A stretch of 64,000 nt of DNA from Alphaproteobacteria bacterium. GTDB taxonomy: Bacteria; Pseudomonadota; Alphaproteobacteria; Rickettsiales; 21-14-0-20-44-7. A program made the translations under genes and the position numbers. Within the stretch, counting starts at the first letter, position 1; each line of letters begins with the position of its first letter. Positions 59,573 to 64,000 of the stretch are shown piece by piece. The stretch covers positions 143,623 through 207,622 of the forward strand of contig JAYVPI010000016.1 in NCBI GenBank assembly GCA_043757405.1. The letters run 5' to 3'. The notes below the pieces were generated by a model, which saw nothing but the letters and a program-made list of their open reading frames with translations, was not told where the DNA came from and did not search any database.

Positions 59573-60328
59573 ATGGTGACTTTTAATCCGGCAATTACAG
59601 AAAGATTGAATGCTCTTGAGAGCGGTGTCCTCAACGGACATTATATATTTAGCCGCGATTTTGAAGATACGATGGTGCGCCGGTTTTCGCAGCCGGATAA
59701 GTTTGCGCATAATATTAGCTATGAATTCACCAATAATCCGGAGATGCTGCAGCAATATTATAATATCCGGGAATATGCCTATAAGGAAACATTGGGCTTA
59801 CAGCATTTTTCGGGGCAGGAAGATGAGTTTGATATACATAGCCATATTTTGATTGTTAAAGCCGGTGGTAATGTTGTTGGTGGGGCCAGATTGATAGTGT
59901 CTACGCCGCAAAATCCGCAAATGATTCCTTTGGAAGAAGACGGATTGGATGTGAAATCTAAATTTCCACAATTGGATTTCTCCCAAATAAACTATTGCGA
60001 AATGTCCCGACTGGCTCTGCTGCCTGAATTCAGGAATAAGGAAATTGCTGAGGAGATTCACCGCAAGTTTATCGATATATGTGCAAGAGACAATATAGAT
60101 GTCGGTTTTGCAAGGACTACTCCTCTTCAGCAAAGAAGGACAAAAACTATATTCAATAATCTTGGATATGAAATGATTGTCCGTAGAGATATAGACGTTA
60201 ATTATGGTGATTTGCCGATGTTGTTTTCATGCGTTGATTTTACTCCTAACCGGGAATATACGGTGTTATTGAAGCAAGTTATTAATTCAGAAATGGCTGA
60301 AATTGCAGAACATTTAGAATTTGCATAA
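59573..60328 (+). CDS. GNAT-fold N-acyltransferase, N-acyl amino acid synthase / OlsB / LuxI-like superfamily
   Basis: The pattern matches acyl-amino-acid synthases: YYNIREYAYKETLGL, DEFDIHSHILIVKAGGNVVGGARLIV, YCEMSRLALLPEFRNKEI. It looks AT-rich and is preceded by a 189-bp AT-rich leader. The subfamily is not resolvable by eye. Confidence 0.6.
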   Translation: MVTFNPAITERLNALESGVLNGHYIFSRDFEDTMVRRFSQPDKFAHNISYEFTNNPEMLQQYYNIREYAYKETLGLQHFSGQEDEFDIHSHILIVKAGGNVVGGARLIVSTPQNPQMIPLEEDGLDVKSKFPQLDFSQINYCEMSRLALLPEFRNKEIAEEIHRKFIDICARDNIDVGFARTTPLQQRRTKTIFNNLGYEMIVRRDIDVNYGDLPMLFSCVDFTPNREYTVLLKQVINSEMAEIAEHLEFA

Positions 60329-60403
60329 AATTTTAGCTAAATTAACTGTCGCTTAACCTCTTGATGCTAAAAATTAATCCATATATATCAATTTGGATTG
60401 GTT

Positions 60404-62419
60404 ATGCTCGACAAAGTTACGGCATATATATTTGCTTTCACTGCAATAGCATTGCTTGGTTCGTCGCCTGCATTTGCAGCTGATGATATCGACAAGCTTT
60501 TAGATACCCCGCTCAAAGACCTGATGAATATGGAAGTTACATCAGTGTCAAAAAAATCCGAGAAAGCTACCGAAGCGGCTGCGGCTATTTATGTTATCAC
60601 GCAGGAAGATATTAAAAGATCAGGCGTGGCCAGCATTCCGGAAGCTTTGCGTATGGCGCCGGGAATTCAAGTTTCAAGAATAAACGCCAGTGCTTGGGAA
60701 GTAACCTCTCGCGGTTCTGCCAGCAGATCGCAGTTTGAAAATAAATTATTGGTATTGATCGATGGCCGCTCGGTTTATAACCCATTATTCTCAGGCGTGT
60801 TGTGGGAAGAACAAAGTACGCCGCTTGAAGACATAGATAGGATTGAAGTTATTCGCGGCCCTGGTTCAACCTTGTGGGGCGCTAACGCGGTAAATGGTGT
60901 TATAAATATCATCACCAAAAATTCGAAGAACACGCAAGGAACTTTGGTTTCTGCCGGTGCCGGTTCTTTTGAGAAATTTTCCGGAATGGCGCGTCAAGGC
61001 GGCAAGATAAATGACAATACTACTTACAGAGCGTATGTCCAAGATTATGAAAACGGCAATACCAAGGGGCTGAACGGTAACAGTATAAATGATAGTTGGC
61101 ATATGTCGCGTACTGGTTTCCGTGCGGATGGCGATAATAAACAGGGCACTAATTATACGATTCAGGGTGATTTGTACCAAGGCAAAAAAAATGAGCAGTT
61201 TGATTTATTGCCGAGTCTGACCGGATCTTTCAATCCCTCAGCTGGTCTTGTTGTCAATGCGCCTGATACGCACAATATGTTGGGCGGCAACTTATTGGGT
61301 AGCTATAATAAAAAATTGGATGATGGGTCTGACCTCGATATCCAGCTTTATTATGATTATACGCAGCGCGGGCTTGATATATTCAGCCAGAAAGTCAGCA
61401 CAATAGATTTCGATGCTCAACATTCAATCAATCTATCAGAAAACCATGCTTTCCTGTGGGGAGTCGGTTATAGATTGATAAGCTATGATCTGGGCGGTTC
61501 GGATATTTTGCGGTATAAAGCCGTTGATGAGCAAAGCAGCGTAAATTTATTCAACAGCTTTTTACAGGATAAAATCCAGCTGGTTCCAGACGAGTTGTTT
61601 CTGACTCTTGGTTCAAAATTCGAACATAATGAATATACCGGCTTTGAATTTGAGCCAAACGTAAGATTGACTTGGCTGCCTACTAGCAATCAGACAGTAT
61701 GGAGTGCAGTATCAAGGGCAGTTCGAACGCCGAGCATCAACGAAAGAAACCTGACCCAGATAATCGCTGCTTTCCCTGGCCCAGCCTATGGAGCTTATAC
61801 AGTTGACGGCAGATTAGAATCCGAAGATTTGATTGCTTATGAATTAGGCTACAGGATACAGCCAACTGATAAACTATCGTTTGACGTTACCGGCTTTGTC
61901 AATGACTACTCCAATTTACGTACATTCGAACAATCTGGTCCGATTGCACCGGATATTGCGGCAAGCTACACACTCTCTAACAAAGCTAGTGGTATGAATA
62001 AAGGTTTAGAGTTTTCTTCGAATTGGGAAATTACGAAAAACTGGAGTTTGAGTGGTGGCTATAGCTATATAGATAGTCATATAAAATTGGATCGTGATAG
62101 TACTGATAATCTATTTGGCAGTACCGATAAGGAGCGATCGCCACGGAACATGTTTAACGCTCGCTCGCATTATAAGATTGCTGACCAGTTGCAGATGAAT
62201 AATACATTGTATTATGTCGCTAAGCTGCCAACTGATCAGGTTCCGAGCTATTACAGGCTTGATACGAATGTAATTTGGAATGTCAGCGATGGTATTGACC
62301 TTAGCCTTGTGGGCCAGAATCTGTTGGATGGCGAGCATCAGGAGTTTGGTGGCGCTACTTATAACAGCCCTTCGGAAATCCCACGTTCGGTGTTTGGTAA
62401 GGTAACGGTCAGGTTCTAA
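60404..62419 (+). CDS. TonB-dependent receptor
   Basis: The track ORF starts at a TTG and is trimmed to the ATG at 60404. It has a signal peptide, a plug domain (DLMNMEVTSVSKK, IPEALRMAPGIQV, IEVIRGPGSTLWGANAVNGVINIITK), a 22-strand-type barrel and a C-terminal ...VFGKVTVRF. Confidence 0.9.
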   Translation: MLDKVTAYIFAFTAIALLGSSPAFAADDIDKLLDTPLKDLMNMEVTSVSKKSEKATEAAAAIYVITQEDIKRSGVASIPEALRMAPGIQVSRINASAWEVTSRGSASRSQFENKLLVLIDGRSVYNPLFSGVLWEEQSTPLEDIDRIEVIRGPGSTLWGANAVNGVINIITKNSKNTQGTLVSAGAGSFEKFSGMARQGGKINDNTTYRAYVQDYENGNTKGLNGNSINDSWHMSRTGFRADGDNKQGTNYTIQGDLYQGKKNEQFDLLPSLTGSFNPSAGLVVNAPDTHNMLGGNLLGSYNKKLDDGSDLDIQLYYDYTQRGLDIFSQKVSTIDFDAQHSINLSENHAFLWGVGYRLISYDLGGSDILRYKAVDEQSSVNLFNSFLQDKIQLVPDELFLTLGSKFEHNEYTGFEFEPNVRLTWLPTSNQTVWSAVSRAVRTPSINERNLTQIIAAFPGPAYGAYTVDGRLESEDLIAYELGYRIQPTDKLSFDVTGFVNDYSNLRTFEQSGPIAPDIAASYTLSNKASGMNKGLEFSSNWEITKNWSLSGGYSYIDSHIKLDRDSTDNLFGSTDKERSPRNMFNARSHYKIADQLQMNNTLYYVAKLPTDQVPSYYRLDTNVIWNVSDGIDLSLVGQNLLDGEHQEFGGATYNSPSEIPRSVFGKVTVRF

Positions 62420-62420
62420 A

Positions 62421-63017
62421 ATGCGCAGCAAAATCAGTCATAAATTGGGGAGGTGGCTATTAATCACCCTCCTGCTGATGAGTACGGCACTCGCCTCGAA
62501 TGTGCCGGCCACTCGCGCAGGTGCTGCTGAGGAATTAACTGATTATGATTGGCAGGCGATTTATCTAGTTAAGCTCAGCCTTGATATTGAATGGCCGCAA
62601 ACTACTTTAAGCGGCGATTTGCGTAATGTGAATATATGCCTTTTGGGGAATAGCCCAAGTTTTACGCATGCTTTGCAAAATATTGCTCCCAAGGCGGAAC
62701 AAAAGAAGCTGAAGATCAATATTAGGGCTGATAATTCTAATGATCTTAAAGGATGTAATATTGCCTATATTCCACGTGGTAATGCTGAGTATAAGCAAGT
62801 TATCGCTGCGGCCAAATCATTCCCGGTGCTAACCGTTTCCCCGATCGATGGCTTTGCGGCCAATGGCGGGATTGTGGAGTTTATTATGACGGAGTCCGGT
62901 AATACGGTGAATAATAAGGTCAATGTTAAATTCAAGATAAATAACGGAGCCGCAATTGCGAGCGGTTTGAAAATTGGTACGGATGCCCTCAAATCAGCGT
63001 TGGAGGTGACGGAATAA
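62421..63017 (+). CDS. YfiR-family (DUF4154) periplasmic protein
   Basis: A signal peptide is followed by the DUF4154 pattern ([67 protein letters not shown]). The start lies 1 nt after the receptor stop. Confidence 0.75.
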
Positions 63018-64000
63018 TGTTTCTGAAACGACAATCGCTGAGTGAAAAAATGTTGCTGATAATTCTCGCTATAAGCGGAATTTGTGTTGTTCTCACAACC
63101 GTGACGATAACTGCGCTTGGCATTCATAATATGCAGGATAAGATGGTTGGTGATCTTGAATTGCTTACTAAAACACGTGCCGCCGCATTGACTGGTTCGT
63201 TAAGTTTCGGACGTTTTGATGAAATTGAGGAGGCGTTGCAAGCATCGCGCTCAGAAGCGGAAATTATGGCCTGCGTTTATAACAAAGACAATCTTGCGCC
63301 CGATACTGTCACTCAATATCCCCATAACGCGAAATGCCCAAGTCTTGATATTGTGGCTTCCCAACCGGATAGCACATCATTCCAGGGGAACAGGCTCAAG
63401 TCATATAGAGCCATTGTAAGCCAGCAAAAAGGGACGGTAGGCTATATCTATGTTGAAGCCGACGAGCGTGAGATTGATCATTTTATAAAAGTTCAGGTTC
63501 TGACGGCGTTGATGATTATTCTTACCGTATTTGTACTTTCATATTTCCTTGGACAGAAACTGCAGCGTTCTATCAGTGAGCCGATATTGAAGCTGGTGGA
63601 TACTACGCGCAAGGTTTCTTATGAGCGGGATTATTCGATTAGGGCGGAGAATTTCCTGCAGGGTGAGGATATTAAGCGTAATGAGATTAGTGTTTTGATT
63701 GAAGCATTCAACCAGATGTTAAATGAGGTTGAAGAGCGGAGAAAATTGCTGTTACGCAAGAACCAGGAATTGGTGAAGGCGAAGGAAACGGCGGAGACTG
63801 CCAACCGGGCGAAATCGCAATTCCTTGCGAATATTTCGCATGAACTCAGGACGCCGTTGAATGCGGTTATTGGTTTCTCCGATCTTATTTGTAATGAAAT
63901 TCTGGGGCCGATTGAGGATACGAGATATGTCGAATATGCGCGTGATATCAATGAATCGGGCGAGCATTTGCTGCATATTATCAATGATATTTTGGATCTC
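63017..64000 (+). CDS. Sensor histidine kinase (TM - extracytoplasmic CHASE8-like domain - TM - HAMP - HisKA), 5' part; continues past the right window edge
   Basis: Not in the ORF track because there is no stop in the window. My translation from the ATG at 63017 (TAATG overlap with the yfiR-like stop) is open to 64000: [26 protein letters not shown]..., a second TM helix [19 protein letters not shown], a HAMP region, and the H-box [19 protein letters not shown]. Confidence 0.85.

Follow-up and report, generated by a model that had tools for sequence, protein, structure and literature searches.

What is the gene for a small acyltransferase doing immediately in front of genes for an outer-membrane receptor, a periplasmic repressor-like protein and a sensor kinase? 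The question is posed by the last part of a 64,000-nucleotide (nt) stretch of DNA, hereafter the window (positions 143,623 to 207,622 of contig JAYVPI010000016.1, from an alphaproteobacterium of the order Rickettsiales). Four co-directional genes lie there on the + strand, as an initial annotation had read them: a GNAT acyltransferase gene (59573-60328; 251 amino acids, aa), a TonB-dependent receptor gene (60404-62419; 671 aa), a gene for a YfiR-like protein of the DUF4154 family (62421-63017; 198 aa) and a sensor histidine kinase gene (63017-64000, continuing past the window end, so that the window holds the first 328 of 500 aa). We refer to the last three as the triad. The catalytic part of the GNAT protein and the receptor share an evolutionary history that conflicts with both flanks of the locus, and a second pair that co-varies is formed by the YfiR-like protein with the kinase's sensor domain.

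The conflict appears in bootstrapped neighbour-joining trees from six complete loci (orthologous loci are cited by number, L003 and so on). The window groups with L004 and L005 in the trees of the upstream polyprenyl synthase IspB (bootstrap 100%), of the kinase (100%), of the Sel1-repeat protein encoded behind the kinase (99%) and of PhaR (82%), whereas the GNAT and receptor trees both join it to L003 with 100% support. GNAT residues ~51-251 and the receptor barrel carry the discordant signal. The leader in front of the GNAT gene and the N-terminus of its product follow the species pattern, and the receptor plug is uniformly conserved, with divergence concentrated in barrel segments. Nucleotide sliding windows at 150-nt resolution place the borders more closely. 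From IspB to the 5′ third of the GNAT gene the nearest relative of the window is L005 or L004; over one contiguous segment, ~59880-62360, which covers the catalytic part of the GNAT gene and the receptor gene, it is L003; over ~62360-62510, the receptor 3′ end and the start of the YfiR-like gene, it is L005; over ~62510-63350, the YfiR-like protein and the kinase sensor, it is L004; and at the kinase 3′ end and in the Sel1-repeat gene it is L005 again. The breakpoints of this mosaic coincide with the borders of two putative interaction pairs, enzyme with receptor and YfiR-like protein with kinase sensor.

Partial Mantel tests, which control for housekeeping divergence, recover the same two pairs. 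One is the GNAT catalytic domain with the receptor barrel, which correlate at r=0.81 (p=0.008); the other is the YfiR-like protein with the kinase sensor, at r=0.80 (p=0.001). The receptor barrel and the YfiR-like protein, whose genes are only 1 nt apart, do not co-vary (r=0.21, p=0.22). The sensor (residues ~35-165, encoded at 63119-63511) is the most divergent part of the kinase, with 24-56% identity among the orthologues in L003-L016 against 63-90% for the cytoplasmic part, and the YfiR-like protein is as divergent as the sensor domain.

How constant is the association itself? The GNAT gene lies directly upstream of the receptor gene in eight of eight assessable syntenic loci (window/L001, L003, L004, L005/6, L007, L015, L016 and L020; L019 ends right after the GNAT gene), a lineage within which orthologue identity falls to 33% for the GNAT protein and 49% for the receptor. 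The linkage is kept despite genes inserted between IspB and GNAT in L015 and despite different flanks in L016. Two non-syntenic loci, L027 and L028, also pair the GNAT gene with a receptor gene, and both receptors pass the cut-off of the TOL_0244 family model described below. In L028, a metagenome-assembled genome (MAG) of the Hyphomicrobiales, the gap between the two genes is 22 nt and contains a Shine-Dalgarno sequence, and a CHASE8 kinase and a response regulator are encoded divergently. In L027 the order is GNAT, antisense cytochrome P450, receptor and YfiR-like gene (5299-7789), with a tRNA-Thr gene directly upstream of GNAT, no adjacent kinase, and a DedA/VTT protein gene after the YfiR-like gene; the locus looks like an island-borne variant with a tailoring enzyme.

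Within the triad the genes are packed as closely as the initial annotation had described. The receptor stop and the YfiR-like start form TAA-a-ATG (62417-62423, a 1-nt gap), and the YfiR-like stop overlaps the kinase start by 1 nt in TAATG (63015-63019). Comparably tight junctions, with gaps of 0-3 nt or overlaps of 1-4 nt, occur in the orthologous loci and in the distant Sphingobium triad; L005 alone departs from this, its called gene starting 40 nt past the receptor stop although an in-frame open reading frame (ORF) opens earlier. The receptor, YfiR-like and kinase genes are translationally coupled, and this coupling is conserved across loci. A mechanical ORF list puts the receptor start at a TTG at 60398; we place it at the ATG at 60404 because an ATG aligns there in eight of eight orthologues and because a receptor of 671 aa is called in L001, a separately assembled contig whose sequence equals that of the window in this region.

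The three products belong to a catalogued and recurrent set of neighbours, for which NCBIfam keeps three dedicated models. The receptor matches NF053590 (the TOL_0244 family) with 658.5 bits, above the cut-off of 645, model positions 2-604 aligning to residues 34-673. It consists of a signal peptide, a TonB-box-like EVTSVSK, a plug and a barrel, the last two being its only Pfam domains. A FecA-type STN signalling domain is absent by Pfam, and the TOL_0244 model begins ~6 residues past the predicted signal-peptide cleavage. Its relatives fill at least 8000 protein clusters at an expectation value (E) of 1e-20 or lower; receptors for siderophores, haem and B12 supply the profiles that come next, and the name 'iron complex outermembrane receptor protein' is given to some relatives.

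The YfiR-like protein has a signal peptide and only two cysteines, C73 and C112. The DUF4154 identity first proposed for it holds on two grounds: it matches PF13689 (DUF4154, YfiR/HmsC-like) with 73.4 bits (cut-off 24.9, E 2.6e-20), and the top four Protein Data Bank (PDB) matches of its AlphaFold2 model (mean predicted local distance difference test score, pLDDT, 78.6) are YfiR structures, among them 4yna, 4yn7 and 4xjy, at E 2e-8 to 1e-7 and target-normalised TM-scores (TMt) of 0.67-0.71. Periplasmic solute-binding proteins rank after the YfiR structures in that fold search; by sequence, the protein has no match among PDB chains at E<=1. Its best NCBIfam match is NF053591 (TOL_0243), with 53.2 bits under a cut-off of 125. 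The spacing of C73 and C112, 39 residues, is that of Cys71-Cys110 in YfiR, an equivalence drawn from spacing, not from alignment, and the protein has no second cysteine pair to correspond to Cys145-Cys152.

The kinase, whose C-terminal remainder was read from L001, is built of a transmembrane helix, a periplasmic domain of ~125 aa, a second transmembrane helix, HAMP, HisKA and HATPase, and has no receiver or GGDEF domain over its full length. Its sensor region matches the whole 223-position model NF053592 (HK_near_YfiR_like, 'sensor histidine kinase, YfiR-like protein-associated') with 124 bits (122.7 for the full-length protein; cut-off 194), and its N-terminus (residues 6-257) matches positions 2-241 of NF007423 (DgcN/YfiN) with 73.4 bits. 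The sensor had been called CHASE8-like. Its homology to the YfiN N-terminus and to NF053592 speaks for that description, but Pfam CHASE8 (PF17152) itself has no match to the window kinase at E<=0.1; the homology to CHASE8 is thus indirect, through the kinases in the same position in L017 and L028, which the domain does match. A cell-cycle kinase of the PdhS/DivJ type, suggested by the truncated protein, was dropped after the full-length profile match; the core of the full-length kinase is generic, with BarA, TorS, HrmK, LuxQ and PdhS matching about equally and all far under their cut-offs. The only detected receiver-domain protein of the window is a single-domain CheY-like protein of 178 aa, encoded on the - strand at 38621-39154, ~21 kb from the kinase.

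In the rest of the kinase and downstream of it, the initial annotation had proposed to look for a receiver, a GGDEF domain or an exporter. None came to light: the kinase is completed by its HATPase domain only, and the next gene (6258-6899 of L001, just past the window) encodes a secreted or periplasmic Sel1-repeat protein of ~215 aa. Throughout the syntenic lineage (L001, L003, L004, L005, L015, L016) the kinase gene is followed by one for a Sel1-repeat protein of ~200-250 aa, which could be a fifth component; the profile matches of this protein are generic and include a weak one, of 30 bits, to the periplasmic kinase regulator ExoR.

Beyond this lineage the order receptor, YfiR-like protein, sensor recurs in Sphingobium, Indioceanicola, Pseudoalteromonas and L017. 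The kinases of the Sphingobium, Indioceanicola and L017 triads are hybrid, and the Pseudoalteromonas triad ends in a YfiN-like GGDEF-EAL protein (227 bits to DgcN/YfiN) without an adjacent yfiB. Some members are bona fide by the curated cut-offs, the Sphingobium YfiR-like protein with 140 bits (above 125) and the L028 kinase domain with 196.5 (above 194). Full-text literature searches on YfiR, DUF4154, CHASE8 and TonB-dependent returned no paper on the triad or its function, so that its first description as a recurrent but functionally uncharacterised module stands. The L017/L018 locus (8001-13487) contains two tandem receptor genes; the first, which is either a fusion or a frameshifted duplicate, is called with 1036 aa and two sets of Plug and barrel, and a 69-aa fragment follows it. 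The hybrid kinase there carries CHASE8, HAMP, HisKA, HATPase, REC, Hpt and REC, with no GNAT gene within 8 kb.

To what family does the enzyme belong? The GNAT protein matches Pfam Acetyltransf_5 (PF13444) with 31.7 bits, above the gathering score of 22.4; the other Pfam matches of the four products are Plug and TonB barrel, DUF4154, and HAMP and HisKA. It falls just under the gathering score of FeeM (PF21926; 23.9 bits, threshold 27), far under the cut-off of TIGR03694, the PEP-CTERM/exosortase-associated acyltransferase (36.7 bits, cut-off 111.95), and reaches 13 bits against the NCBIfam TraI model (cut-off 292); Autoind_synth (PF00765) has no match to it. Among 89 relatives, FeeM is matched by 70 (E<=0.01, best 1.7e-10), Acetyltransf_5 by 56, TIGR03694 weakly by 55 and Autoind_synth by one, and none passes a curated NCBIfam cut-off. 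Its AlphaFold2 model (pLDDT 78.9) has a confident GNAT core and a poorly predicted N-terminal stretch of ~45 residues. Ranked by coverage, its best PDB matches are the acyl-homoserine lactone (AHL) synthases BjaI, LasI, TofI and MesI together with FeeM, at query-normalised TM-scores (TMq) of 0.49-0.54.

The E-x-SR core noted at the outset is present as YCEMSRLALLPEFR; E143 is invariant in a 22-sequence alignment, S145 and R146 are nearly invariant in the ten closest relatives, and a conserved R...Y...ED..D block accompanies the E-x-S-R strand. The N-terminal ~45 aa are lineage-specific yet conserved (MVxFNPAI..LN.LS...LNGHYIF), and a C-terminal LEFA is also kept. By profiles and predicted fold, the protein is a member of the N-acyl amino acid synthase/AHL-synthase branch of GNATs, in keeping with the acyl-synthase type originally assigned to it. 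The family is small: with a profile from the ten closest relatives, only 839 of 1.84 billion cluster representatives were retrieved. For a metagenome search, no stretch of the 89- and 22-sequence alignments was conserved enough, and the 10-sequence alignment gave only eight loci. No plasmid match was obtained with tblastn, no exosortase or PEP-CTERM gene was found in the loci examined, and no LuxR-type gene stands among the called genes of any locus.

A sister clade of GNATs, without the N-terminal FNPAI motif, lies in a different setting. In seven loci of other Alphaproteobacteria and Rickettsiales MAGs (L008, L009, L010, L021, L022, L023 and L024) its genes are divergent from glmS and followed by a flippase-like LPG_synthase_TM gene and usually by a GT2 gene, which suggests an uncharacterised aminolipid or glycolipid pathway in these lineages. 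In L024 a flagellin gene is inserted between the genes of the cluster. The flippase-linked clade has 100% support, and the receptor-linked GNATs fall outside it.

What controls the genes? The 189-nt leader between IspB, whose stop codon at 59383 fixes its length, and the GNAT gene (59384-59572, 28.0% GC) contains several blocks that are conserved in the orthologous loci. Four ATTT(G/T) repeats in 11-bp phase (ATTTTAGCAGC ATTTGTGCAAC ATTTGAATAAA ATTTG; 59429-59466, + strand) are conserved in six leaders, and the array is unique in the window, where 0.12 would be expected by chance. It is a candidate tandem site for a winged-helix regulator; a response regulator that binds in tandem may use it, perhaps the partner of the kinase. 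A motif AAAATTTTAG occurs in both intergenic regions (59429-59438 and 60326-60341); in the spacer the copy runs over the GNAT stop codon (TAAAATTTTAGC) and hardly varies among loci with 33-66% GNAT identity. For a riboswitch or another known RNA in the leader the outcome was negative, with no Rfam match in the whole window and a leader fold like that of shuffles (z -0.1).

Both upstream regions also contain a box of the CtrA type on the + strand. Box 1, TTAAGAATGAGTTAA (TTAA-N7-TTAA; 59513-59527), starts 60 nt upstream of the GNAT ATG, and box 2, TTAACTGTCGCTTAAC (the full TTAA-N7-TTAAC; 60342-60357), starts 62 nt upstream of the receptor ATG. Box 1 is kept in six of seven orthologous loci at about the same distance to the GNAT start with variable spacer bases, and box 2 in all seven of the orthologous 75-nt GNAT-receptor spacers, again with a variable N7. 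A matrix trained only on the other loci ranks box 2 first and box 1 second in the 64-kb window; box 2 reaches 27.0 bits, whereas the highest score in ten shuffles is 21.4; box 1, with 14.8, is by itself within the shuffle range. In L004 and L005 the two boxes are the sole matches in 19.9 and 11.4 kb. TTAA-N7-TTAA is the published CtrA box, and most CtrA-activated promoters are described as carrying it over the -35 region (PMC11264516). The box in the window spacer matches that arrangement: a -10-like TAAAAAT of the TAnAAn pattern (60368-60374) lies 11 nt downstream of the second TTAA, so that box 2 overlies the -35 region. A terminator scan found no terminator between GNAT and receptor and one terminator-like match inside the GNAT coding region. 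The GNAT gene and the receptor operon would thus be two co-regulated transcription units with promoters of their own, and CtrA control of the module seems likely; no ctrA gene was seen in the 64-kb window. TTAA-N7-TTAA has seven matches in the window against 2.2 expected, a number reached in none of 100 shuffles. The other five sites (1207-1221, two overlapping at 4783-4808, 16412-16426 and 36737-36751) are close to the genes of an APH-family kinase, a UbiA prenyltransferase, Ffh/SRP54, a 224-aa protein of unknown function and a DAO-family oxidoreductase.

The 5′ untranslated region of the receptor gene folds into a hairpin (60372-60403, + strand; core AAUCCA/UGGAUU) whose 3′ arm ends right before the ATG and holds the only Shine-Dalgarno-like purines. 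It has a folding energy of -8.8 kcal/mol (z -2.8) in the window and is found at the same place in eight of eight orthologues (window, L003, L004, L005, L007, L015, L016 and L020), at -8.5 to -12.6 kcal/mol. With each sequence folded alone, the stems differ among loci (AAUCCA, GACCCA, AGUCCAU, CCCCUG, AGCCAU and others); an alignment-based consensus fold of the spacer recovers only four pairs, because the stems cannot be aligned by sequence. The hairpin looks like a conserved element of translational control or mRNA stability.

From these parts a chain of events can be proposed, and we put forward the whole of it, from a self-made acyl product through receptor import and the YfiR-like protein to the kinase, only tentatively, as possible and short of probable. 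In the cytoplasm the GNAT enzyme would make an N-acylated amine or amino acid. At the cell surface the TOL_0244-family receptor would recognise this product, or a closely related derivative, and carry it across the outer membrane. We infer that product and ligand are the same because of the recurrence of the neighbourhood, the shared history and the shared promoter architecture. In YfiBNR, YfiN is repressed by YfiR bound to its periplasmic domain, and YfiB removes YfiR at the outer membrane; YfiR itself binds vitamin B6 and L-Trp (PMC4655355, PMC4887326). By analogy, the periplasmic YfiR-like protein would bind the YfiN/CHASE8-type sensor and hold the kinase in one state, as YfiR does YfiN; this interaction is the best-supported step, because the two proteins are homologous to the YfiR/YfiN pair and co-vary. 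Arrival of the ligand in the periplasm would alter this hold, by a favoured route in which the ligand binds the YfiR-like protein, and the kinase, whichever the direction of its control, would then signal to a response regulator encoded elsewhere. Import with periplasmic sensing is favoured because the receptor lacks a signalling extension, because receptor and YfiR-like protein do not co-vary, and because the YfiR fold resembles that of solute-binding proteins. The enzyme gene and the receptor operon would have separate promoters, each with a CtrA-type box, the hairpin would mask the ribosome-binding site of the receptor, and the three downstream genes would be coupled in translation.

A bolder version has the form of a pherotype system, in which the receptor gates a self-made N-acyl amino acid, a YfiR-fold relay passes the signal to the kinase, and synthase with transporter and YfiR-like protein with sensor behave as exchangeable cassettes. 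This we regard as speculative and rather unlikely.

Several observations weigh against the import-and-sense chain. No GNAT gene is present in the DNA examined around five triads (Sphingobium, Indioceanicola, Pseudoalteromonas, L011 and L017), in four of which the receptor is clearly more distant, the fifth being L017, where one of the two tandem receptors scores like the orthologues. The co-occurrence check set with the first proposal therefore has a mixed outcome: the GNAT gene accompanies the receptor and YfiR-like genes in the eight syntenic loci, L027 and L028 but not in triads at large. It is an accessory of one triad branch, not part of the core. The CtrA boxes are absent upstream in L027 and L028, which rules them out as a general trait of GNAT-linked triads and would make the CtrA-type control lineage-specific. 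The YfiR-like protein (53 against 125 bits) and the kinase sensor (124 against 194) both score under their NCBIfam cut-offs, so that the lineage of the window is a divergent branch of the triad, and neither an exporter nor a cognate response regulator is encoded nearby. With the plug as control, over 8-10 taxa, the correlation between GNAT and barrel weakens to r=0.34 (p=0.05 and 0.02). The discordant history is essentially one event among six to ten taxa, and the same trees would result from one recombination tract of 2.5 kb, or from selection that acted on the receptor alone and took its neighbour along; faster rates in L004 and L005 could also mimic exchange. Whichever of these processes was at work, enzyme and receptor changed together. 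Finally, the sister-clade GNATs, beside flippase-like and GT2 genes, have a setting that speaks for the synthesis of membrane lipids more than for signalling. The proposal of a module that produces, imports and senses its own molecule is strengthened by the discordant history that GNAT and receptor share, and is weakened by the triads that lack the enzyme.

A close alternative keeps the same parts and the link between enzyme and receptor but takes the ligand out of the periplasm: the receptor, loaded with ligand or under envelope stress, would itself sequester the YfiR-like protein and so free the kinase, as YfiB does. The precedent is direct, since the outer-membrane partner in YfiBNR sequesters YfiR (PMC4655355, PMC4887326), and in every triad the receptor gene occupies the position of that partner and is translationally coupled to the YfiR-like gene; the Pseudoalteromonas triad even places a full YfiN-like GGDEF-EAL protein (227 bits) by receptor and YfiR with no yfiB adjacent. 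Such a capture would nonetheless have to work through a receptor that has neither an N-terminal signalling extension nor an STN domain and whose barrel shows no co-variation with the YfiR-like protein (r=0.21, p=0.22). YfiR has two conserved cysteine pairs, Cys71-Cys110 and Cys145-Cys152 (PMC4655355); the latter, which lies within the YfiB-binding interface, has no counterpart in a protein with only C73 and C112. We consider capture unlikely.

We give the same low weight to a reading in which the GNAT enzyme makes a structural N-acyl amino acid aminolipid, the triad is an independent sensor of envelope or nutrients, and the two are neighbours through a shared envelope theme. The discordance would then stem from one recombination tract, or from phage- or bacteriocin-driven selection on receptor loops that dragged the neighbouring gene along; the contiguity of the discordant segment at 150-nt resolution (~59880-62360) and the placing of receptor divergence in barrel segments around a uniformly conserved plug suit such an account. 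So does the sister clade in its seven loci: because it adjoins LPG_synthase_TM and GT2 genes, relatives of the enzyme probably act on membrane-associated lipids. Acetyltransf_5, moreover, is a Pfam family that we take to hold OlsB-type lipid acyltransferases as well. An OlsB-like housekeeping role had been raised from the start as the outcome that would sever the link. The profiles tested give it no match, with no OlsB-named family among the NCBIfam and Pfam matches (we are unsure whether a dedicated OlsB model exists), and no olsA-like second acyltransferase of the PlsC type lies in any locus examined; the membrane-lipid-type context of the sister clade is the part of that concern that persists. 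Against a structural lipid, GNAT and receptor are adjacent in two unrelated genomic contexts, the receptor-linked GNATs stand outside the fully supported flippase-linked clade, and the P450 between GNAT and receptor in L027 fits a tailoring step on a small molecule. A single imported tract is also awkward to square with the spacer hairpin, since that of the window resembles those of L004, L005 and L020 and not that of L003.

Nutrition offers a further reading, which we find improbable: the acylated product would be an amphiphilic chelator or scavenger imported for nutritional use, with the YfiR-like protein and kinase tuning expression in the manner of Fec. It draws on the siderophore, haem and B12 profiles that come next for the receptor and on the iron-complex names of its relatives, and receptor-coupled regulation of uptake genes is well established for FecA-FecR-FecI; a chelator from one small GNAT alone is unlikely, however, the loci examined contain no non-ribosomal peptide synthetase, NRPS-independent siderophore (NIS) synthetase, periplasmic binding protein, ABC importer or reductase, and the receptor lacks the signalling domain of a Fec-type transducer. 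That the GNAT gene is an unrelated neighbour merely retained upstream of the triad is just as implausible, for although it has its own promoter region and a 75-nt spacer, is missing from five triads (four of them distant) and owes its co-occurrence mostly to one syntenic lineage, the adjacency recurs with different flanks in L027 and L028, with genes 22 nt apart and a Shine-Dalgarno sequence between them in the latter, the discordant topology is common to GNAT and receptor, and both upstream regions have the same box architecture.

How does the import-and-sense arrangement relate to known systems? With YfiBNR and its relatives (TpbB/AwsXRO/HmsCDE of Pseudomonas, E. coli and Yersinia) it shares a periplasmic YfiR fold, a partner with a YfiN-homologous periplasmic domain and HAMP, and a third, outer-membrane component encoded alongside. 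It differs in that this component is a 22-strand TonB-dependent receptor, whereas YfiB is an OmpA-like lipoprotein, of which there is no gene in the window locus or the orthologous loci; in that the output is a HisKA-HATPase kinase, whereas YfiN is a GGDEF cyclase; in having a possible match to one cysteine pair of YfiR and none to the other; and in the order receptor, YfiR-like protein, sensor, with an acyltransferase gene attached in this branch. The NCBIfam triad (NF053590/NF053591/NF053592) has the same three genes in the same order and as tightly coupled, but its hybrid kinases in Sphingobium, Indioceanicola and L017 differ from the window kinase, which has no receiver. In every triad the TonB-dependent receptor stands where YfiBNR has the lipoprotein YfiB.

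Quorum-sensing circuits offer a second comparison. As in LuxI/LuxR and LuxM-LuxN/LuxP-LuxQ, a small acyltransferase of the same superfamily sits beside a sensing apparatus; as in LuxP-LuxQ, a periplasmic binding protein is proposed to gate a membrane kinase; and as in pherotype systems, synthase and receptor change together across strains. Unlike LuxI circuits, the locus has no LuxR-type gene and its GNAT no Autoind_synth match, and we know of no described acyl-signal circuit that includes an energised outer-membrane transporter. FeeM and the other N-acyl amino acid synthases, including TIGR03694, share the AHL-synthase/FeeM GNAT fold, the FeeM matches, the R...Y...ED..D block and E-x-S-R; the window enzyme differs in its ~45-aa N-terminal extension and C-terminal LEFA, undescribed for them, in having a TonB-dependent receptor as genomic partner, and in scoring under both cut-offs. 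As in the FecA-FecR-FecI transducers, an outer-membrane TonB-dependent receptor is encoded with, and presumably informs, a periplasm-facing regulator of an inner-membrane signalling protein, although here the receptor has no signalling domain, there is no pair of anti-sigma factor and extracytoplasmic function (ECF) sigma factor, and the relay would consist of a YfiR-fold protein and a histidine kinase.

To our knowledge a mechanism has been worked out for only one YfiR system, YfiBNR, which is linked to the persistence of biofilms. The triad would represent the same periplasmic repressor logic rewired, with a receptor in the outer-membrane role and kinases or GGDEF-EAL proteins as outputs, and this branch offers both a candidate source of ligand, the adjacent acyltransferase, and evolutionary evidence on which parts interact. 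As far as we can tell, three things are new here: the acyl synthase joined to the triad, the co-variation in pairs, and the conserved elements of regulation. They turn an anonymous gene trio known by name only into a testable hypothesis and make a widespread orphan module experimentally approachable. If the product of the enzyme is the ligand, TonB-dependent receptors would join the receptors of quorum or kin signals, and there would be a sensing pathway dedicated to N-acyl amino acids. The pherotype-like version, if true, would give the widespread TOL_0244 triad its first function, provide the first YfiR relative shown to act outside cyclic di-GMP control, and be the first acyl-signal circuit to depend on energised uptake at the outer membrane. 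The likely CtrA control would tie the module to the cell-cycle and developmental programme of the Alphaproteobacteria.

A few features of the surrounding sequence complete the description. The AT-richness first judged by eye was confirmed by composition: GC content is 39.2% in the GNAT gene, 43.5% in the receptor gene, 44.9% in the DUF4154 gene and 43.8% in the kinase part, with the leader lowest, against 47.9% for the window. The conserved block upstream (window 55878-59383 and orthologous loci) encodes PagL, PhaR, an alpha/beta hydrolase (PhaC-like), LolA and the polyprenyl synthase; a 117-aa ORF at 56361-56714 and several antisense ORFs of the window are probably not genes. GC skew is positive in all 500-nt windows of 50000-64000 (0.005 to 0.38), and the steady climb of the cumulative skew over this range fits a leading-strand position of the + strand.

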